In this document: positions 8,954-60,436 of the stretch, one piece after another | Layout: the number at the start of each line of letters is the position of its first letter | Position numbering within the stretch: position 1 is the first letter of the stretch | DNA from: an uncultured delta proteobacterium | Lineage (GTDB): Bacteria > Desulfobacterota > Syntrophia > Syntrophales > UBA2185 | Direction: 5' to 3' | Length of the DNA stretch: 64,000 nt | NCBI GenBank assembly: GCA_963729715.1 | Contig: CAVSPA010000006.1 | Location: 135,748 to 199,747 of the forward strand | Translations under genes and position numbers: made by a program | Notes under the pieces: generated by a model | What the model saw: only the letters and a program-made list of their open reading frames with translations | Databases searched by the model: none | What the model was told of the DNA's origin: nothing

Positions 8954-9213
8954 AGCTTTAATCCTCCTTTCTCAAATATTCTCTTAAGTCGGATTTTCAC
9001 TATGACAGAAAGTAAAAAACCGCCGATACTCTAAAAAGCATGGCGGCCATCCTTTGCAATTCAAAATGTCGAAATCCAAACTTACTTAGTAGTCATAGTA
9101 TAGGCAGCCTATCCTCAGAAGTCAAGGATTAATATTTAATTCTTTCAATCATGTGTTTTATCTCTCAAGTCGTTGCAAATGAACAACATCTTCCCGAAGT
9201 TTTGTTTTTCCAA

Positions 9214-9233
9214 TTTTGCACGTCTGTGCAAAA
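9214..9233. promoter_or_regulatory. perfect palindrome TTTTGCAC-GTCT-GTGCAAAA, ~260 nt upstream of the cold-shock gene
   Basis: 8-bp perfect inverted arms read directly in the sequence. A regulator site or cold-shock leader structure is possible. Confidence 0.25.
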
Positions 9234-9343
9234 TTTTAACCCGTTATCGCGGCAAAATAGAAGGTAGAACCAATTTAACTCTGCCTGGAATAAAGAAAGA
9301 ATAAACATTTGGCGGTTAATTTAGACGCACGGTATTGTTTTGC

Positions 9344-17205: not shown

Positions 17206-17661
17206 ATGAGTTCATTGAAAATCTTAAAGGAATTTCTTGCAAAGATAAAATCTCGAAAACAAGACAGAGACATTATGCAGATTGCCGATATCATCGGGCC
17301 GATGATAGAAAAAGCGGTCTGGGATATCTTCGTCAGTTACAGGGTGGAATTGTTGTCTGAAGAGATTATCTTTGTTATCCCAGCGATTTGGGGCGCCAAG
17401 AAGGACGGTGAACTCACTGCGACGCAAAAGGCGATTGGCGAACAGATTGCTCCTGTGATTAAGAGAATTTTCGAGCTCCTTGATATAAGGGATCTGGACT
17501 CCACCCAGGAATTTGCCCTCAATTATCTAGTTCGGGGGCTTATCGTATCAAAAATCACTTACATGATTGAGGCATTCCGGAGCAAGCTGAAGGACAGGTC
17601 ACTAGATGAGCAAGGACTTAAGGATGCCCTCTTGCGCTTCAAGCCGCAGGGCAACGCTTAA
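17206..17661 (+). CDS. hypothetical protein (151 aa)
   Basis: Clean ORF with no recognisable domain. The ORFs immediately downstream (17673-17954 plus, 17676-17963 minus) overlap each other and could not be resolved. Confidence 0.4.
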   Translation: MSSLKILKEFLAKIKSRKQDRDIMQIADIIGPMIEKAVWDIFVSYRVELLSEEIIFVIPAIWGAKKDGELTATQKAIGEQIAPVIKRIFELLDIRDLDSTQEFALNYLVRGLIVSKITYMIEAFRSKLKDRSLDEQGLKDALLRFKPQGNA

Positions 17662-32955: not shown

Positions 32956-34374
32956 ATGAGACGGAAGGACGCACAGTATGCAAAGGTTTATCGAGGGAAG
33001 GCGCTGATTGCCGATCCCATATACCAGTATGCCTCTTTTACTGTGCCGACAACTGATTTTCCGGACGAGAAAACGGAAAAGGACCTGATCGATTCTCCCT
33101 GGGTTCAAAGATTGCGGAGAATTTACCAGCTCCAGAGTGCCCGCTGGGTGTATCCGGCCGCAGAGCACAGTCGATTCCAGCATTCCCTCGGGACCATGCA
33201 CGTGGCGGGCGAGTTCGGAAGATATCTTTATCCCAGCCTGAAAGAGGTGTGCAGGGATGCCCCTTCATTGAACTATGTTGAGGAGGTTCTCCGCGTTGCG
33301 GGACTTCTGCATGATGTGGGGCATGGCCCGTACGGGCATTTTTTCGATGACCACTTTCTCAGCCAGTATGACATTACCCATGAGGATCTGGGAAAAGCGA
33401 TTATCACGAAAAGGTTGGGGAAGATCATCCGTCAAATCCGAAGAAGCCCTAACGGTCCCTTTGCCGGTGGTGAATGCCTCGACCCAAATCACGTGGCAAT
33501 TCTGATTAAAATGCCGGAGGGGGATGAAACTGGGGTGCCGCGGTGGCTGCAGCTTCTGAGGCAGCTCTTTTCAGGCATTTACACCGTGGATAATCTCGAC
33601 TATGTGCAGAGAGACGCCTACATGACGGGGTTCTCCCTCGATATTGTGGATATTACGAGACTTCGCTTTTATACTTTCTTTACGAAAGACGGCTTCACCC
33701 TGCATCAGGCAGGCATCTCGGCCCTGAGTCGCTTCATAAATGCAAGATTGAATCTCTATACAAATGTCTATTTCCATAGGACGACGAGAGCTCTTGATCT
33801 TCATCTGCAGGAGATATTCAGGGAAACGATGCGCATAATCTTTCCATGGAATCCATTGGAGGCGCTTGACGAGTATCTGAATTGCGATGAATGGCATTTG
33901 TACTATATAGTTTTGGGCTGGCTCGGGGAAAAGGACCGGAAGAAACAGAGACTGAGTCAGGAATGGACAAAGCTTTACAGCAGGGAAGTGAAATGGAAGA
34001 TGTCTTTTTCAACAGAGATATCCATCGACCAGATTCAAAGGGGGACGAGATTCGCCCATGCAGGCGACTATGAAAAGCAACTCAGGAGTTTTCTTCCTGA
34101 AAAACTGAAAGGCATTCCATTTCGCGTCGATTTGGCAACACAGGACCCACGCCCCATAAACCCCATGGCAGAGACGGAAAAAAGGGTTAATATCTTCAAC
34201 CCGACCACGGGTACAACGTCCCCGGAGCCATTGAGAGACATCTACCGCTTTATACCGGCGCGTGTCGTTCATCTGCGCGTCTTTGCACTTTCCCACGATA
34301 ATGATGCAGCGATTTCCAAGGCCGCTGAAAAGATGCTTAGCGCCTTGGAGGGAACTGCAAAGACTAATGTATGA
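32956..34374 (+). CDS. HD-domain phosphohydrolase (dGTPase/SAMHD1-like)
   Basis: ...RFQHSLGTMHVAG...LLHDVGHGPYGH...VDNLDYVQRDAYMTG..., the HD motif. The track ORF starts at 32734, but MRRKDAQ at 32956 is the plausible start. Confidence 0.75.
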   Translation: MRRKDAQYAKVYRGKALIADPIYQYASFTVPTTDFPDEKTEKDLIDSPWVQRLRRIYQLQSARWVYPAAEHSRFQHSLGTMHVAGEFGRYLYPSLKEVCRDAPSLNYVEEVLRVAGLLHDVGHGPYGHFFDDHFLSQYDITHEDLGKAIITKRLGKIIRQIRRSPNGPFAGGECLDPNHVAILIKMPEGDETGVPRWLQLLRQLFSGIYTVDNLDYVQRDAYMTGFSLDIVDITRLRFYTFFTKDGFTLHQAGISALSRFINARLNLYTNVYFHRTTRALDLHLQEIFRETMRIIFPWNPLEALDEYLNCDEWHLYYIVLGWLGEKDRKKQRLSQEWTKLYSREVKWKMSFSTEISIDQIQRGTRFAHAGDYEKQLRSFLPEKLKGIPFRVDLATQDPRPINPMAETEKRVNIFNPTTGTTSPEPLRDIYRFIPARVVHLRVFALSHDNDAAISKAAEKMLSALEGTAKTNV

Positions 34375-34400
34375 CCCGATCATCGGAAATATTTTTTGTC

Positions 34401-34419
34401 TATAGTGTTGAACACTATA
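34401..34419. promoter_or_regulatory. perfect palindrome TATAGTGTT-G-AACACTATA upstream of the NrdD-like gene
   Basis: 9-bp perfect inverted arms read directly in the sequence. The half-sites ACACTAT/ATAGTGT resemble NrdR-box halves but are in inverted order relative to the classical box. Confidence 0.4.
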
Positions 34420-34493
34420 TGTCTTTTATCCCCCTACGCATTGCTTAGGGAAAACTCCGGGGAAAAATTATGACAAATTTAAGGTAATCGCGG

Positions 34494-36560
34494 ATGGCAA
34501 ATGACGAGACCACAGATATAACCCTGTTCGTGAAGACATCCGGCGAGGATATTGCCAGATGGAACCGGCAGAAAATTGTTGATGCCCTGATCCGTGAAAC
34601 GAACGTCAATGTAGATACGGCAGAGGCAATCAGCAGAGAAGTTGAAAAACAGATCATTTCATCCGGTATCGGTGTACTGACTACGCCCCTCATCAGGGAA
34701 CTGGTGGACGCAAAACTAATCGAGAGGGGCCTTGAACAGGCAAGAAAGATGCACGCCCTGCTGGGATTTCCCATTTATGATGTACGGCAGTTGATCCTTC
34801 TTCAGAATAAGGAAAACGCCAACATACCTCACAGTCCGGAAGGCACGAATCTGATACTTGCGGAAGGAATAAAGAAAGAATACTCACTCTATGAGGTCTT
34901 TTCTCGGGAAGTCGCAGATGCGCATGTTATGGGCGATATCCACCTTCATTCTCTGGGATACATAGACAGGCCGTACAGTTCATTTCAGTCTCTTGAATAT
35001 ATAAAGAAATTCGGTTTGAACCTTCCCCACTCCCTAACAGTTGCCAAACCGGCCAAACATGCGGAGGTACTCCTCGCCCATATGGTCAGATTCGGCGCCA
35101 TTCTGCAGGGGCATTTTGCCGGAGTCATCGGCTGGGATGCCGTTAATTTCTCTTTTGCACCCTATCTGGCAGAGATGAGCGAAAAGGAAGTCAGGCAATT
35201 CGCCCAGATGCTCATTTATGAATTCTCCCAATTGACATCGGCTAGGGGCGGGCAGGCCATGTTTACTGACATTCACCTCTACTGGGATGTTCCGGAACAT
35301 CTTCGGGATGTTCCGATTATCGGCCCGGGAGGAGAATTGACGGGGAGTAATTACGAAGATTTCGCCGCTGATGCAAGGAGATTTGCTTGGGCCATTTTCG
35401 AAGTCTTTATAAAAGGGGACGGTACGGGCAAGCCTTTCATATTTCCCAGGCCACTCGTTCATATTACCGGGAATTTTTTTCAAACGCCGGGTCATGAAGA
35501 CTTTCTCAATCTCATCTGCCGCGTTGCCGTTGACAAGGGAAATACATGCTTCCTTTTCGATCGCGAGGAGATGATTAAGGCTTATTCGTGCGGTTTTCCG
35601 GCCACCGCTGAAAAGGGTAATGTGTCTGCCGAGGCGAAGATGCCCTGGCGGATGAGATGTCCGGTCTTACAGAACGTGACACTGAACCTTCCCAGGCTGG
35701 GTTACAAAGTCGAGGGGGATGAGAAAAGATTATTGTCTATGCTCTCCGATCTTATGGAAGTGGCAGCAAAAGCCCACGTAGAGAAGAAGGATTTTATTGA
35801 GAAGCTACTCTCCCACGGTGACGAAGGACCGCTGTCCGTGCTCGCGATGAAGAGAGATGGCTATCCGTATCTGAGGATGGATCATGCATGCTTCCTCATC
35901 GGCACTGTGGGACTCAACGAACTTGTCCGGATTCATACGGGAAGCCAGTTGCATGAATCGGAAGATGCCCTGATGTTTGGTTTGAAACTGATCGCCCATA
36001 TGAAGGATGAGACCGAAAAACTGAGCCGGAAATATGGCTTGAATTTTATCTTGGAACAGACGCCTGCGGAAACCACAGCCTACCGTTTTGCACGGCTCGA
36101 TCTGCGATACTATTCTCCGAAGGCGGGTCATTTTGTGCAGGGTGATATTTCGAAGGGAGAGGTCTACTATACAAATTCAACCCATCTTAGCCCATCAGCC
36201 ACTGTGGATCCAATAGAACGTGTAAGACAGGAAGGCCGCTTTCATCCTTTGACAAAGGGAGGAGGCGTTACCCAGGTGTGGCTCGGCGATGTTCGACCTT
36301 CGAGTGAGGAAATCGTCGGGTTTATCACCAAGGCATTTACGGATACTGAGAACGATCAGCTTCTGTTCTGTCCTGAATTTACCACCTGTAGAGAATGCGG
36401 CCAGACATTCAGGCGCCTAAAAGATGAGTGTCAATTCTGCGGCTCGAAGGATGTGGAAGGGATAGCGAGGATTACCCAGTATTTCAGCAGGATATCCGGC
36501 TGGAATAGAGGTAAACTGGCTGAACTCAGGGACAGGAAGAGATACGAGGAAATCAGTTGA
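34494..36560 (+). CDS. nrdD: class III anaerobic ribonucleoside-triphosphate reductase (NrdD)-like protein; Gln at the glycyl-radical position
   Basis: 688 aa. N-terminal ATP-cone and C-terminal zinc ribbon CRECGQ...CQFCGS. The tail ARITQYFSRISGWNRGKLAELRDRKRY aligns to the NrdD glycyl-radical motif R-x-C-G-Y-L...N.GK..E...R with Q in place of G. No nrdG activase gene is adjacent. Confidence 0.7.
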   Translation: MANDETTDITLFVKTSGEDIARWNRQKIVDALIRETNVNVDTAEAISREVEKQIISSGIGVLTTPLIRELVDAKLIERGLEQARKMHALLGFPIYDVRQLILLQNKENANIPHSPEGTNLILAEGIKKEYSLYEVFSREVADAHVMGDIHLHSLGYIDRPYSSFQSLEYIKKFGLNLPHSLTVAKPAKHAEVLLAHMVRFGAILQGHFAGVIGWDAVNFSFAPYLAEMSEKEVRQFAQMLIYEFSQLTSARGGQAMFTDIHLYWDVPEHLRDVPIIGPGGELTGSNYEDFAADARRFAWAIFEVFIKGDGTGKPFIFPRPLVHITGNFFQTPGHEDFLNLICRVAVDKGNTCFLFDREEMIKAYSCGFPATAEKGNVSAEAKMPWRMRCPVLQNVTLNLPRLGYKVEGDEKRLLSMLSDLMEVAAKAHVEKKDFIEKLLSHGDEGPLSVLAMKRDGYPYLRMDHACFLIGTVGLNELVRIHTGSQLHESEDALMFGLKLIAHMKDETEKLSRKYGLNFILEQTPAETTAYRFARLDLRYYSPKAGHFVQGDISKGEVYYTNSTHLSPSATVDPIERVRQEGRFHPLTKGGGVTQVWLGDVRPSSEEIVGFITKAFTDTENDQLLFCPEFTTCRECGQTFRRLKDECQFCGSKDVEGIARITQYFSRISGWNRGKLAELRDRKRYEEIS

Positions 36561-36761
36561 CTCCGCATACGTCTAAGTATGCCTCATACCGTATGATTTG
36601 CACACCCTAGAACTCGCGTTTTCTACGCGGCCGTCTGTTTGTCAATCCTGCAAAAGATTTTTTTCGTATATCATTAATGCCCTGCCCTTGACATGGGATA
36701 GGCCGATAAATATATTACGCACAGAATTTGGCCATTTTAAACGCAAGACCGCATAGTTGAC

Positions 36762-37346
36762 ATGGAAGATCATATAGTAAAGATATTCAAGGAAAGCAGT
36801 AATCTGACGGATGTTTTCGTCGCAGAAAATCTTGATGGTATTGTCAGTGTCATTGAGGCAATTACGGCGGCATTGAAAGCAGGAAACAAAATACTGCTGT
36901 TTGGGAACGGTGGCTCCGCCGCTGATGCCCAGCATCTGGCAGCAGAATTTGTGAACCGCTTCGTTATAGAACGTCCGCCGCTTCCGGCAATTGCCTTGAG
37001 CACCGATACATCCGTGATTACGAGCATCGCTAACGATTATGACTTCTCTGAGATATTCAGCAAGCAGATCAGGGCGATAGGCCAGACAGGCGACGTGGCG
37101 TGGGGCATAAGCACCAGCGGTGCCTCTCCAAACATCATAAAAGCCATTGAAGCAGCAAAGAAGATAGGGATGATCACAGTAGGCATGACGGGGAAGGACG
37201 GGGGCGACATAGCCAAGATGGTGGACTATTCACTCAATGTTTCCTCTAACAGCACACCGCGCGTGCAGGAGGTCCACATTACCGTGGGCCATGTGATATG
37301 CGAGATGATTGACTATAAGCTCTTTCAGAGGCCGGATGCGAAATAA
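36762..37346 (+). CDS. gmhA: phosphoheptose isomerase (SIS domain)
   Basis: LLFGNGGSAADAQHLAAEF...GDVAWGISTSGASPNIIKAIEAAKKIGMITVGMTGKDGG...QEVHITVGHVICEMID. Confidence 0.85.
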   Translation: MEDHIVKIFKESSNLTDVFVAENLDGIVSVIEAITAALKAGNKILLFGNGGSAADAQHLAAEFVNRFVIERPPLPAIALSTDTSVITSIANDYDFSEIFSKQIRAIGQTGDVAWGISTSGASPNIIKAIEAAKKIGMITVGMTGKDGGDIAKMVDYSLNVSSNSTPRVQEVHITVGHVICEMIDYKLFQRPDAK

Positions 37347-46221: not shown

Positions 46222-46956
46222 ATGTTGATTAAAAGAGCCGTCGGTATTATTTTAGTGGTTACTGCCTTTGCCATCGTTCTCGGATGTGCAAGCTACGAAT
46301 CGAAGGTAGTGCCCTTCAAAATGCCCGCAGCCTACCCCAATGCAAAGGAAGTTGCAGGGGCAACCATCGCCGCCCAGGCCTATAGCGACAAGAAAGAAGC
46401 AGAGGACGCTTTTGGATTTGATATCATCGGTGCGGGTTTGATGCCTGTGAGGATCATTTTTGATAACAAGGGGAAGCACCCGATTGATATAGTGGCCAAT
46501 CAAACGTACCTGGTCGATGCAGATAATAACCTCTGGCCCGTGCTCGAGGATAGGATGGCATACGATCGCATACAGAAGAAAACGGAGTTCGGAAAGGTGG
46601 CCCCGGAAGCAGGAAAATACGGGGTGCTGGGCGGCATTGCCGGCGGCGTCATCGGCGCGGCAATAGGCATTGTATCCGGCCATAATGTCGCTGATGCGGC
46701 AATGAAAGGGGCGGCCTTGGGCGCGGCCGCTGGGATCACGGGCGGTGGCTTAAAGGGAATGAGCGATACCGATGTTCAGTCACAAATCAGATCGGACCTC
46801 GAAAAAAGGTCCCTCGAACGCCGTTCCGTCATGCCCGGAGAAATTGCGCAGGGGTTCATATTCTTCCCGGGCGAATCGAAAAAGGCTGTCGAGCTGCGGC
46901 TGCAGATCAAAGAGGCTGATACGGGGAAAAGCTATCCGCTCGTCATGAAATTTTAG
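46222..46956 (+). CDS. lipoprotein with Gly-rich TM-like segment, hypothetical
   Basis: AGGAGG RBS. MLIKRAVGIILVVTAFAIVLGC lipobox. The track start at 46201 precedes the RBS. Confidence 0.6.
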   Translation: MLIKRAVGIILVVTAFAIVLGCASYESKVVPFKMPAAYPNAKEVAGATIAAQAYSDKKEAEDAFGFDIIGAGLMPVRIIFDNKGKHPIDIVANQTYLVDADNNLWPVLEDRMAYDRIQKKTEFGKVAPEAGKYGVLGGIAGGVIGAAIGIVSGHNVADAAMKGAALGAAAGITGGGLKGMSDTDVQSQIRSDLEKRSLERRSVMPGEIAQGFIFFPGESKKAVELRLQIKEADTGKSYPLVMKF

Positions 46957-48486
46957 ATTGTTCAATGACGCATTCATGAGAATCCTCCCCTCTATGCGGG
47001 GGGAGATGGGAGAATGCTTTTCGAGATAGGAAACGAGAACATCTCTCAGAGCCGTGCCGTACGTAAAATTCTTCCCTTCCTTGAAGGGCGAAAATGCATC
47101 TCCGCCGGCGGCAAGGTAATCGATTGTCGTTACCGTATAGATCTTTTCAGGAGCTAAGGATCGTCTTCCTATATGTACTTCCCGAACCCGGGAGCCCGCC
47201 GGTTCAGATAGATCGTACCTTATTTCCATGCCCGAAACCTGCAGGATGCCATGCTCCAGCTTCGCGTTCTGCTCGAGGATTTCCAGGATTTGCTTTCCTG
47301 TAAGTTTCATAGTGACAAGGCTGTTATCGAACGGCAAAAGCGTGAAGACCTGCTCCATCGTAATTCTCCCTTTTGGGATATTGTTCCTGATAGCGCCACT
47401 GTTGATGAAGGCCATATCCGCGCCTGTCCTCTTCCGCATGACGTCGCATATAAGATTTCCTATGTTGGATTCTCGCTGGTGATACCTTACCAGAGGAACG
47501 GAAGTCTCACCGACAACTTTGCCGTATTCTTTCTCTATCCGGCCATAATAGGCTTGAACGATTTTTGCCAACTCCTTATCATATGGCCTGTCCCTGCCTG
47601 CCATAACTTTTTCGAGCTCTTTCTCTTCCGTATGGCTGATGATCTTCCCGGTATCGGGATCTATCTTGAGTTTTAAGACGCCGAGATATAATCCGTAGGC
47701 GCCCGCCTGGACGATTATTGTGTTCCCAGCCGCCACGGGATTCTCCAATGCCGTGTGACTGTGTCCGCCCACAATGATATGGATGCCGGAAGTTCGCTGA
47801 GCCAAGTCTTTGTCGGCGTCTAATCCGAGGTGGGAAAGGACGATGATGATTACGGCCCCTTCGTCCTTTGCCTTTTCTATGAACCGGGGAAGAACGTCTT
47901 CGGGCCTATCAACGGTCATGTGTTTAAGGCGGCCAGGTGCCGTGATGCGCGGAACTTCGGGCGTGGTCATGCCTATAATCGCGATTTTCACTTTCTTTCT
48001 TTCGACTATAATGTATGGCTTAACACCTGGGAGATATCTGCCTCTTTCATCCTTTATATTTGCGGAGAGATAGGGAAATCTGGACCAAGAGACAAGCTGC
48101 CGGAGAGTATCCATTCCCCAATCGAATTCGTGATTCCCGATGGCCATCGCATCGAACTTCAGAAAGTTCATCACATCTGCCACGGATCGGCCCTTGAAGA
48201 GGTTGGAGACGGGCGTTCCTTGGAACATGTCCCCAGCGGAAAGCAGCAAAATGCCGTCAGGATTTTTTGACCGCTCTTCCTCGATCATACGGGCGAGATA
48301 GGCGGCGCCTCCGACCATTTGCCTTTCACCTGAAGTTTCTTCAATATAAGGCAGAATGCGGCCGTGCGTATCGTTTATATGGAGGATCGTTAAATCGACA
48401 GGCACAGCTTCCTTCGCGAGAAGGGCCGGTGGAAAGGAAAAAATGAGAAGCGAAAGAAGGATAATTATCCTCGCCATCCTTTTCAT
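46780..48486 (-). CDS. periplasmic bifunctional metallophosphatase/5'-nucleotidase (UshA-like)
   Basis: Signal peptide MKRMARIIILLSLLIFSFPPALLA. LHINDTHGRI, GNHEFDWG and GGHSHT metallophosphatase motifs, plus a 5'-nucleotidase C-terminal domain. The last ~60 codons overlap the convergent lipoprotein gene antisense. Confidence 0.8.
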   Translation of the reverse strand: MKRMARIIILLSLLIFSFPPALLAKEAVPVDLTILHINDTHGRILPYIEETSGERQMVGGAAYLARMIEEERSKNPDGILLLSAGDMFQGTPVSNLFKGRSVADVMNFLKFDAMAIGNHEFDWGMDTLRQLVSWSRFPYLSANIKDERGRYLPGVKPYIIVERKKVKIAIIGMTTPEVPRITAPGRLKHMTVDRPEDVLPRFIEKAKDEGAVIIIVLSHLGLDADKDLAQRTSGIHIIVGGHSHTALENPVAAGNTIIVQAGAYGLYLGVLKLKIDPDTGKIISHTEEKELEKVMAGRDRPYDKELAKIVQAYYGRIEKEYGKVVGETSVPLVRYHQRESNIGNLICDVMRKRTGADMAFINSGAIRNNIPKGRITMEQVFTLLPFDNSLVTMKLTGKQILEILEQNAKLEHGILQVSGMEIRYDLSEPAGSRVREVHIGRRSLAPEKIYTVTTIDYLAAGGDAFSPFKEGKNFTYGTALRDVLVSYLEKHSPISPRIEGRILMNASLNNLKFHDERIAFPRISLFDLQPQLDSLFRFAREEYEPLRNFSGHDGTAFEGPFFEVRSDL

Positions 48487-48962
48487 AAGGAAACCTCTGA
48501 AATCTTTTGAGTCCGTCTTCGCCCGTATCATGTGTAGATCCTTATCTAAGAAATAAAGAAATGTTATCCAACATATCCAGCCCATCGCGATGTTGCAAGC
48601 CCTAAAGTAACAGCTTTTTACGAAGTTATTAGTTATATAATCCTGAAAAATGAAGGTAATAATAAGTAATAATTTGTAACTTTTTGTATTGCAATGTTGC
48701 TCTCATTGTGTATAATGTCATGCCACAAGGATATGAAGAACGAAGTCCATGTTCATTCTGGGCGGGAAAAGCACGAAATCTTCAATGAAGAATCCTGGGG
48801 AAGCACCTTCTGTGCTTTTCTTTCATAACGCAAGAGAGTTTAACAAAACCGTATTAATGCTGTCATGAAGCTGTAAGACTCTGAGAGTATATTGACCGCA
48901 AAGGAATGATCGTTCCACAAATTATGCCCGGGAAAGATCATTAAATAATAGGAAGGGAGGAG

Positions 48963-50534: not shown

Positions 50535-51075
50535 GTGTCCCTTTCGGGGATGGTGGAAACCCCTCGCCTTTAGGCGAAGAAAAGTTTATATACTGTCGTT
50601 ATGCGACGTTATCAACTAGGAGCACATAGAACGAGTGACCTCAAGGTTCACTTAATCTGGATACCGAAATACCGTAAAAAAGTATTGGTAGGGCCAGTGG
50701 CGGTTCGCGCGCGAGATGTCTTGCGCCAAATTGCCTTGGAACATGAACTTGATATAATTACCGGCAAAGTAGCGAGCGATCATGTTCATATGTTCATTTC
50801 ATATAGACCGAGCCATGATGTTAGCAAAACCGTTCAATGGTTAAAAGGGATAAGCTCGCGAATTTTGCTATCTGAATTTTCCCATTTAAAAAAGCAATTT
50901 TGGGGCAGACATCTCTGGGCGCGAGGGTATCTGGCCGTAAGTTCCGGCAACATAACGGATGAAATGATCCAGCACTATATTCAAGAGCAAGAAGTGGAGC
51001 CGGTGACTGATGGCAGTCGATTTGAAATCGCCCCCTCTTAAACCCCTCGACTTATAGTCGAGGGTAATTCAGTTT
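50535..51075 (+). mobile_element. IS200/IS605-family insertion sequence (tnpA only; ends approximate)
   Basis: Y1-transposase gene flanked by small hairpins: TCCC-tttc-GGGA and CGCC-ttta-GGCG on the left, CCCTCGAC-ttata-GTCGAGGG on the right. It abuts repeat copy A. Confidence 0.6.
50601..51041 (+). CDS. tnpA: IS200/IS605-family transposase TnpA (HUH Y1)
   Basis: 146 aa: ...HLIWIPKYRKKVL...HVHMFISYRP...VQWLKGISSRILLSEF..LKKQFWGRHLWARGYLAVSSG.ITDEMIQHYIQEQ. Confidence 0.9.
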   Translation: MRRYQLGAHRTSDLKVHLIWIPKYRKKVLVGPVAVRARDVLRQIALEHELDIITGKVASDHVHMFISYRPSHDVSKTVQWLKGISSRILLSEFSHLKKQFWGRHLWARGYLAVSSGNITDEMIQHYIQEQEVEPVTDGSRFEIAPS

Positions 51076-60320: not shown

Positions 60321-60436
60321 AATTCTGTAGCGAGCGCAGTCCCCGCAGCCTGCTGCGGGGTAAGCGAGCGACTGACGAACGAAAACTGTTCCTTAAGAAT
60401 CGAAGATTCTCCGCAGCTTGCTACGGAGAGCTTCAA
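60321..60436. repeat. ~115-bp hairpin-rich intergenic repeat (copy B)
   Basis: Pairs with 50417-50531. Contains the perfect hairpin CCCCGCAG-cctg-CTGCGGGG, GAATC-gaa-GATTC, and CTCCGCAGC...CGGAG. Confidence 0.7.

Follow-up and report, generated by a model that had tools for sequence, protein, structure and literature searches.

An NrdD-like protein without radical-chemistry residues, encoded beside a SAMHD1-type HD-domain gene in Syntrophales

What becomes of an anaerobic ribonucleotide reductase (RNR) when its radical glycine is replaced by glutamine? The question is raised by an NrdD-like gene, encoding a protein with the class III RNR fold, in a stretch of 64,000 nucleotides from an uncultured delta proteobacterium of the Syntrophales (assembly GCA_963729715.1, contig CAVSPA010000006.1), referred to below as the window. 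A first interpretation, made from the letters of the DNA alone (the sequence-only reading), had proposed a non-radical pseudo-enzyme or regulatory protein, or else a new variant. The former is strongly supported by our analysis: the radical Gly, the active-site Cys, the Asp of the HxHD motif and a conserved thiyl Cys are missing throughout a clade that evolves under purifying selection. The genes of this clade are coupled to an upstream gene for a SAMHD1-type HD-domain protein and uncoupled from both NrdG and NrdR. We put at roughly 0.55 the probability that the window protein is a class III reductase that has lost its activity and been retained as a nucleotide sensor, serving as partner or regulator of the putative HD-domain deoxynucleoside triphosphate (dNTP) triphosphohydrolase (dNTPase) encoded next to it.

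Fold and radical residues of the NrdD-like protein

The Pfam NRDD profile (PF13597) spans the whole product of the gene (E = 1e-127), and the protein scores 355 bits against TIGR02487, the NCBIfam equivalog model for NrdD, which has a cutoff of 326. An AlphaFold2 model calculated from a 66-sequence alignment reached a predicted template modelling score (pTM) of 0.82, and its top Foldseek matches are exclusively NrdD structures (E ~1e-31 to 1e-22), the best being the class III RNRs of P. copri, S. thermophilus, T. maritima and phage T4. Profiles and model thus place the protein in the NrdD sequence family with its ten-stranded barrel fold, in agreement with the NrdD-like core recognized by the sequence-only reading. 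The CxxC...CxxC zinc ribbon named there is also present, with all four Cys invariant. The ATP-cone was identified less securely: Pfam does match it, but at 24.1 bits, under the cutoff of 25.8. An exact-sequence lookup of the window protein returned no match. The TIGR02487 cutoff is passed despite the absent catalytic residues described below, and because it is passed, annotation pipelines will name the protein an anaerobic RNR; the source names of its homologues already read anaerobic reductase.

Every known RNR, whatever its class, uses a thiyl radical and a conserved Cys, and a functional NrdD carries its radical Gly in an R-[IV]-x-G-Y motif. Aligned to PDB sequences with phmmer (8p23, 4coi), the window protein reads RITQY where P. 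copri has RITGY and T. maritima RIVGY, which puts Gln662 on the radical Gly, as had been claimed. Its codon (36477-36479) is CAG, two changes away from GGN, again as described. The sequence-only reading had itself named the finding that would overturn this placement, a conserved Gly elsewhere in the tail such as that of SGW; this residue, G669, fails as a radical site, its column holding Ser in the canonical relatives and G, D or S in the clade. The search it had suggested for other NrdD homologues with Gln here yielded about 150 (59-92% identity) that carry Q or, rarely, K, R, H, L or E at the radical Gly position. Among the 120 best database homologues (63-92% identity), which come from Syntrophales and 'Deltaproteobacteria' metagenome-assembled genomes, nearly all read RITQY, with an occasional H, L, E or R, and a few at ~64% identity read RITGY. 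Across 80 related loci from GTDB species representatives, the position is occupied by Q in 29, K in three, R in two and G in 45, and is unreadable in one (L006).

For a finer comparison, 81 proteins were aligned with MAFFT and divided by gene context, giving 31 canonical nrdG-linked sequences and 34 members of the non-Gly clade. All 31 canonical sequences are invariant at PYC(162)SGQ, at IHLHD, at the finger loop KISECCRLSFKLE and at RITGY. At column 162 the clade has S (25 sequences), A (seven) or N (two) in place of the invariant Cys. The equivalent residue of the T. maritima enzyme, C125, is described as conserved in all known RNRs (PMC4493059). The HxHD motif, which binds triphosphate (PMC4493059), has its Asp in all 31 canonical sequences and G or S in the clade, reading HLHS in the window; both His residues (H150 and H152) are invariant. 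The finger loop, invariant at SECCRL in the canonical relatives, is hypervariable in the clade, with insertions and deletions, and contains no Cys at all in seven members (L011, L012, L023, L035, L042, L077 and L078). In T. maritima the motif is SCCR, and its second Cys (C330) aligns with the thiyl Cys290 of phage T4, which lies in MGCR. In the window this part of the loop reads YSCGF, where MAFFT sets Gly at the thiyl position and phmmer sets the lone Cys there; the Arg of the motif is lost by both alignments, and the predicted local distance difference test score (pLDDT) of the loop is ~47-54. Across the clade, the thiyl Cys is not conserved.

A cognate NrdG is likewise missing from the neighbourhood. 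In the 64-kb window there is no plausible radical-SAM open reading frame (ORF) with a CxxxCxxC motif, the one match being an antisense ORF; the absence of an adjacent activase, noted before, is thus confirmed, and it is a clade-wide pattern. Because the Gly, the active-site Cys, the HxHD Asp and the conserved thiyl Cys are lost and no activase lies nearby, this inventory of residues and neighbours shows a protein that should be unable to act as a glycyl-radical ribonucleotide reductase and hence to reduce ribonucleotides.

Selection and retained nucleotide-binding residues

Pairwise comparison of the window gene with its relatives gave ratios of nonsynonymous to synonymous substitution (dN/dS) of 0.08-0.11, at synonymous distances (dS) from 0.4 to above 1.5. 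The ATP-cone (0.03-0.05) and residues 101-350 are the most constrained part, with the lowest ratios, 0.03-0.06 taken together, and the finger-loop region has the highest (0.12-0.29). This pattern therefore indicates a functional gene under purifying selection, and the protein is very probably non-catalytic but functional.

Which residues are retained was read from the 66-sequence clade alignment. N108-A-N110 of the NxN flap varies little or not at all; the flap of P. copri NrdD touches the γ-phosphate and the base of the substrate (PMC11226230). Invariant or nearly invariant, too, are Q238, Q246, R251, Q254 and F257 in the segment of the specificity site and loop 2, which correspond to T. maritima Q210, Q218, R221, Q224 and Y227. 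In the T. maritima enzyme, Q210 is assigned to the effector Mg/phosphate and Q218 to the effector base pocket, R221 and Q224 make loop-2 contacts to the substrate base, and Y227 stacks on the base (PMC4493059). The same degree of conservation is seen for E526, for the YYTNST motif, for Y663 in the ex-radical domain and, further along that domain, for the tail W670-N-x-G-K...E-L..R (the WN.GK.AEL.DR stretch). The flap, E526 and Y663 are the counterparts of the flap, Glu581 and Tyr712 of P. copri, a network that couples substrate, flap, loop 2 and C-terminal domain and goes disordered upon dATP binding to the ATP-cone (PMC11226230). The structural zinc ribbon, the NxN flap, the specificity site and loop 2 are thus all present as expected of an NrdD.

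Against the canonical sequences, the clade also has invariant substitutions of its own: K199R, S206G, F242Y, Q247L, N261H, K319R, Y352C and S527T. K199R falls at the site of Gln161 in the T. maritima effector pocket, and N261H lies just past loop 2, with His in 34 of the 34 clade members and Asn in the canonical proteins. As a pattern, these substitutions look like retuned nucleotide binding, not decay.

With the thioredoxin-type NrdDs of T. maritima and N. bacilliformis (NrdD2/NrdDh), the window protein shares the fold, the ATP-cone, the NxN flap, HxH and the zinc ribbon. An ancestor of this type, an NrdD2/NrdDh-like class III RNR with an 'ECCR' finger loop, is the best explanation of its origin. 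Among canonical proteins the closest, at ~60% identity, belong to Syntrophorhabdus, Desulfobacterales and ORM2a and are nrdG-linked. Clade and canonical NrdD have in common the specificity-site and loop-2 residues, LEQTPAE, YYTNST and the C-terminal Tyr with WN.GK.AEL.DR. Unlike canonical NrdD, the clade lacks the radical Gly, the C125-equivalent Cys, the HxHD Asp, the thiyl Cys or 'CCR', the adjacent NrdG and the NrdR box, and has an HD-domain gene upstream instead.

Gene neighbourhood and the order of losses

In about 41 loci, a homologue of the window's HD-domain gene (58-93% identity) lies directly upstream of the NrdD-like gene, and none of these loci has a radical-SAM ORF nearby. In 30 canonical loci, a radical-SAM ORF (CNFRCPFCHN) is found 100-520 nt downstream, with no HD gene. 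Not one of the 80 related loci has both an HD gene and nrdG, and every non-Gly member with enough flanking sequence has the HD neighbour, except L023. An HD gene next door had been pointed out by the sequence-only reading; the comparison extends this to a conserved and often translationally coupled partner. Of 37 related loci, 13 have a spacer of at most 14 nt between the two genes, and in some of these the stop and start codons overlap as ATGA or TGATG; the HD catalytic motifs are intact in all related HD genes examined. In L076 an apparent ORF of 1203 aa was considered as an HD/NrdD-like fusion and rejected: it consists of two genes, read in separate frames and overlapping at ATGA.

The start of the HD gene is taken at ATG 32956, which its homologues back; the mechanical ORF runs from GTG 32734. 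The H...HD...D motifs are intact (HSRFQHSLG at 33166, LLHDVGHGP at 33304 and DYVQRDAY at 33598). In the PDB, phmmer matched the protein to 2hek (4e-26), EF1143 (2o6i, 7e-26) and SAMHD1 (~1e-14), with the HD motifs and the N-terminal half aligning to 2hek, 2o6i, 2q14 and SAMHD1; a homologue search returned only close relatives, of 471-473 aa and 71-95% identity. By motif and homology, the protein is therefore a putative dNTPase of the SAMHD1/EF1143 type. The sequence-only reading had called it dGTPase-like; against the NCBIfam dGTPase model the protein scores 25.8 bits (cutoff 439), and because it falls so far below the cutoffs it is not a Dgt-type dGTPase. SAMHD1/EF1143-family enzymes are regulated by allosteric nucleotide sites of their own, and we know of none reported with an RNR-derived partner.

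In a midpoint-rooted neighbour-joining tree, the non-Gly sequences form one clade, all of them HD-linked where the flank allows; the nrdG-linked NrdDs group apart from them, in a clade that is canonical throughout. Sister groups of the non-Gly sequences (L025, L038, L050, L065, L080, L032 and L037) are HD-linked and keep the Gly, having lost C162 and/or the second finger-loop Cys. A further HD-linked sequence, L063, keeps all the catalytic residues (C162, RCCR and Gly) and has no nrdG nearby. The topology therefore implies that HD linkage came first and that the radical residues were lost stepwise later, in the order C162, second finger-loop Cys, then Gly. Among the matches kept, none of 80 assemblies holds both a canonical and a degenerate NrdD; the NrdD-like gene may thus be the lineage's degenerated orthologue, not an extra paralogue.

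The order HD gene, NrdD-like gene, gmhA-like gene, grpE and dnaK is kept across the clade, within a wider synteny that starts with glnA and a flotillin-like gene. Downstream of the NrdD-like gene lies a terminator-like hairpin (Table 1), and a strong promoter-like site at 36688-36716 precedes the gmhA-like, grpE and dnaK genes; this layout suggests that the HD and NrdD-like genes are one unit, separate from the three that follow. The next gene, always found between the NrdD-like gene and grpE-dnaK, had been called gmhA. It does encode an SIS protein, which may be of GmhA or DiaA-like type: it stays just under the cutoffs of the GmhA equivalogs (204.6 vs 209.45 bits and 226.6 vs 276 bits) and reaches 168.6 bits (cutoff 352) against the model for the DnaA-associating protein DiaA. 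No other RNR-sized gene is present in the window, where the ORFs of at least 550 aa encode a PAS histidine kinase, a 5'-nucleotidase, DnaK and the NrdD-like protein. The 5'-nucleotidase/metallophosphoesterase gene (600 aa, 46780-48585, minus strand) lies ~10 kb downstream, a further gene of nucleotide catabolism in the region that nothing observed ties to the pair.

The spacer of the window contains a perfect 19-bp palindrome, TATAGTGTTGAACACTATA, with arms TATAGTGTT and AACACTATA around a central G, which the sequence-only reading had taken for an operator. The palindrome is real; its reading as an operator is not supported. In L001 and L022 the stretch carries 6 changes in 19 positions that destroy the symmetry, L005 and L007 are wholly different at the site, and many relatives have no spacer at all where it would sit. 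No sigma-70-like promoter match was found in the spacer. As RNA, the palindrome would form an 8-bp hairpin, and the spacer folds no better than shuffled sequences (z = -0.94). A conserved operator or RNA element was rejected on these results, and we treat the palindrome as a strain-specific feature without a conserved role seen. Perfect palindromes with 9-nt arms number five in the window against 1.3 expected from shuffles, the other four lying at 17289-17307, 60341-60360, 51044-51064 and 9213-9234.

Regulation by NrdR was considered separately. The NrdR box is reportedly a 16-bp site with the consensus ACACWATATATWGTGT, usually present in tandem ~31 bp apart upstream of nrd genes. A scan for 16-mers with at most three mismatches to this consensus found no box in the window, nor did any locus have one ahead of its HD or NrdD-like gene. 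In front of canonical nrdD the same scan did find boxes, at a distance of ~95-132 nt and in roughly 20 loci (L024, L031, L041, L044, L051-L062, L067 and others, from Syntrophorhabdus, ORM2a and relatives); L048 (58-104) has two in tandem, at -132 and -101, with a spacing of 31 bp. These organisms therefore use NrdR for a real class III RNR. The arms of the palindrome match NrdR half-sites, but in everted order, and an NrdR operator at the NrdD-like gene was rejected. A regex search for the NrdR protein in the window and all loci found none.

Some related spacers hold elements of other kinds. A short GC-rich hairpin element, ctgtccccgcgaaggcggggatcg, occurs with its variants in the closest relatives, L001, L005, L007, L008 and L022, and not in the window. 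The spacer of L009 is interrupted by a 3.2-kb insertion with tandem ggtccccgttaaac repeats beside a run of N, that of L004 by an insertion of 745 bp.

Table 1. Features of the NrdD-like gene and its surroundings, in window coordinates
Feature	Position	Strand	Basis or remark
SAMHD1/EF1143-type HD-domain gene, 472 aa, putative dNTP triphosphohydrolase	32956..34374	+	Pfam HD, PDB phmmer
Spacer from HD gene to NrdD-like gene, 119 nt	34375..34493	+	Coordinates, promoter scan
Perfect 9-1-9 palindrome TATAGTGTTGAACACTATA (TATAGTGTT-G-AACACTATA)	34401..34419	.	74 nt before ATG
NrdD-like gene (688 aa); fold of a class III RNR, radical-chemistry residues absent	34494..36560	+	Profiles, PDB alignment, AlphaFold2 model
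ATP-cone-like N-terminal domain, aa 1-100	34494..34793	+	Pfam 24.1 bits, sub-cutoff
NxN flap NKENAN, aa 105-110	34806..34823	+	N105, E107, A109 and N110 invariant
HxHD degraded to HLHS, Asp replaced by Ser153	34941..34952	+	Alignment
Ser162 replacing active-site Cys (T. maritima C125, P. copri C171)	34977..34979	+	phmmer, PYS vs PYC
Specificity-site and loop-2 segment, aa 235-261	35196..35276	+	phmmer mapping to T. maritima
Degenerate finger loop EEMIKAYSCGFPATAEKGNVSAE, replacing invariant thiyl-Cys-bearing KISECCRLSFKLE	35565..35633	+	Clade alignment
Zinc ribbon CxxC...CxxC (C632, C635, C646, C649)	36387..36440	+	Four Cys invariant
Ex-glycyl-radical domain motif ARITQYFSRISGWNRGKLAELRDRKRY, aa 658-684	36465..36545	+	PDB alignment, clade alignment
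Terminator-like hairpin 3' of NrdD-like gene	36614..36630	+	Terminator scan
SIS_2 protein gene (GmhA/DiaA-type), next gene	36762..37346		Pfam, NCBIfam

Possible roles and the wider family

Because the radical residues are lost and the protein is nevertheless strongly conserved in Syntrophales, with a SAMHD1-like gene just upstream, it is probably a nucleotide-sensing partner. In active NrdD, the flap and the C-terminal domain switch between order and disorder under the control of nucleotides (PMC11226230). With its sites conserved, the NrdD-like protein would still bind ATP/dATP and (d)NTPs; the switch of flap and C-terminal domain could have been repurposed to sense the nucleotide pool, and the sensor would then regulate how its HD partner hydrolyses dNTPs; the two together would serve as a governor of the dNTP pool and not as a source of dNTPs. 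A more specific version is tentative. The former reductase might be an allosteric sensor subunit of the SAMHD1-like dNTPase, its ATP-cone, specificity site and old active site reading the ATP/dATP/dNTP pool; and the former NrdG-activation switch, made of the flap and the ex-radical domain, might gate dNTP hydrolysis by the HD protein, in an arrangement found mainly in Syntrophales so far. We infer rather than demonstrate that the protein binds nucleotides, that it makes contact with the HD protein and which way the regulation would run.

Several observations weigh against a sensor working with the HD protein. L023 is a Gln-type member, taken from a complete chromosome, and no HD gene lies within 10 kb of it; L016 and L021 are also without one. 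The spacer of the window itself is 119 nt, with no stop/start overlap. Loss of the HxHD Asp could weaken nucleoside triphosphate (NTP) binding in the ex-active site, and the ATP-cone, whose match lies under the Pfam cutoff, is modelled with low confidence. Finally, the adjacency may have been inherited from an ancestral active nrdD that stood next to an HD gene, given that L063 keeps its catalytic residues.

On this last point rests the alternative that survives best, which we nonetheless consider unlikely: the protein would be non-catalytic and selected for a role unrelated to the HD protein, as a free regulator, buffer or scaffold, and the gene order would be an ancestral leftover. That L063 is HD-linked with C162, RCCR and Gly in place puts the adjacency before the loss of catalysis, L023 shows the Gln form without the HD gene, and other radical-less NrdD-like lineages occur beside other genes (nrdR with DUF6198, a uridine-kinase-like gene, ribD). 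A mere leftover sits poorly with an adjacency held across order-level divergence at saturated dS, with stop/start overlaps that recur, and with the strict mutual exclusion of HD and nrdG linkage.

It is improbable that the HD and NrdD-like genes are a dNTP-depleting anti-phage module. Bacterial defence is known to use SAMHD1-like and dGTPase enzymes as effectors (bioRxiv 10.1101/2021.04.26.441389), and PADLOC does match the HD protein to a dGTPase profile, weakly (E = 2.6e-5) and over the HD motif only, ~45 of 395 profile positions. We rejected a defence system on this partial match: PADLOC gave none for the NrdD-like protein, and the pair lies in a vertically inherited housekeeping synteny kept order-wide, unlike a defence island.

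Still less probable is a working RNR that uses an unconventional radical, on the α-carbon of the Gln or supplied by a metallocofactor that the HD protein would carry. Diiron oxygenases are known among HD-domain proteins, and the fold and buried C-terminal loop of the clade are conserved. There is also a precedent within the superfamily, the nearest found, for an 'essential' Gly being replaced, in the PFL-like aminoacyl radical enzymes, which form stable radicals with a small residue (Ala, Ser or Thr) at the Gly site and keep the catalytic Cys and an adjacent radical-SAM activase (PMC11528403). The NrdD-like clade has neither Cys nor activase, and its bulky or charged residue varies among Q, K, R, H, L and E; Ser162 stands where the Cys reported as conserved in all known RNRs would be, and several members have no Cys anywhere in the finger loop. 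The least probable reading is a decaying relic or a sequencing or assembly artefact without function, which the loss of all radical residues and the fast-evolving finger loop might suggest, but which is contradicted by an intact 688-aa ORF, by clade-specific invariant residues, by a dN/dS of ~0.1 at dS 0.4 to above 1.5, and by the same substitutions, the Gln included, in dozens of independent assemblies, so that conservation and dN/dS rule out sequencing error and pseudogene alike.

Other NrdD-like proteins also appear to have lost radical parts. Among the 150 representatives of a full-library HMMER search, non-canonical tails read RITRY (P0139), RVTTY (P0147) or IAGHY (P0136 and P0148) and differ again in P0151, P0155 and P0166; more than 25 representatives, of ~740-775 aa, have neither the zinc ribbon nor the C-terminal radical domain. 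These distant radical-less genes are found with an overlapping nrdR and DUF6198, with a uridine-kinase-like gene or with ribD, and without NrdG. Since no HD neighbour occurs in these contexts, the HD pairing is specific to the window clade, and from the variety of contexts and the missing radical parts, radical-less NrdD scaffolds therefore seem widespread. In the literature searched we found no description of radical-less NrdD-like proteins. It is a tentative proposal that the dNTP governor is one case of a broader, undescribed set of radical-less NrdD-like proteins with other partners, such as NrdR or a uridine-kinase-like protein.

Two of these distant groups deserve description. The ~740-775-aa family (P0167, P0192, P0197, P0202, P0204, P0217 and others) has an extra N-terminal extension of ~150 aa and is also without the finger-loop Cys and the Cys equivalent to C162; one such gene, in L081 (2922-5243), is directly followed by a PRK/uridine-kinase-family gene. 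The genes with the P0136 tail (KIAGHY, and PYS for PYC) in L085 (4532-7767) and L086 (189-3424) have an overlapping nrdR before them and DUF6198 after them, and no nrdG was seen near either.

An RNR homologue kept for something other than catalysis has a counterpart in the betaherpesvirus proteins M45/UL45, catalytically inactive homologues of the RNR large subunit that serve another role. Those proteins are class I and viral and act in host cell-death signalling, whereas the NrdD-like clade is class III, bacterial, chromosomal and dNTPase-linked.

A large and conserved NrdD clade without the Gly and both Cys points to a class III scaffold reused beyond catalysis, and the stepwise series, from an active-looking HD-linked form through loss of Cys to loss of Gly, offers a natural experiment in the origin of a pseudoenzyme. 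In Syntrophales, key syntrophs of methanogenic systems, naming these proteins NrdD will mislead metabolic reconstructions. Their conserved pairing with a SAMHD1-type protein provides a testable hypothesis on how strict anaerobes may balance dNTP synthesis against dNTP degradation.

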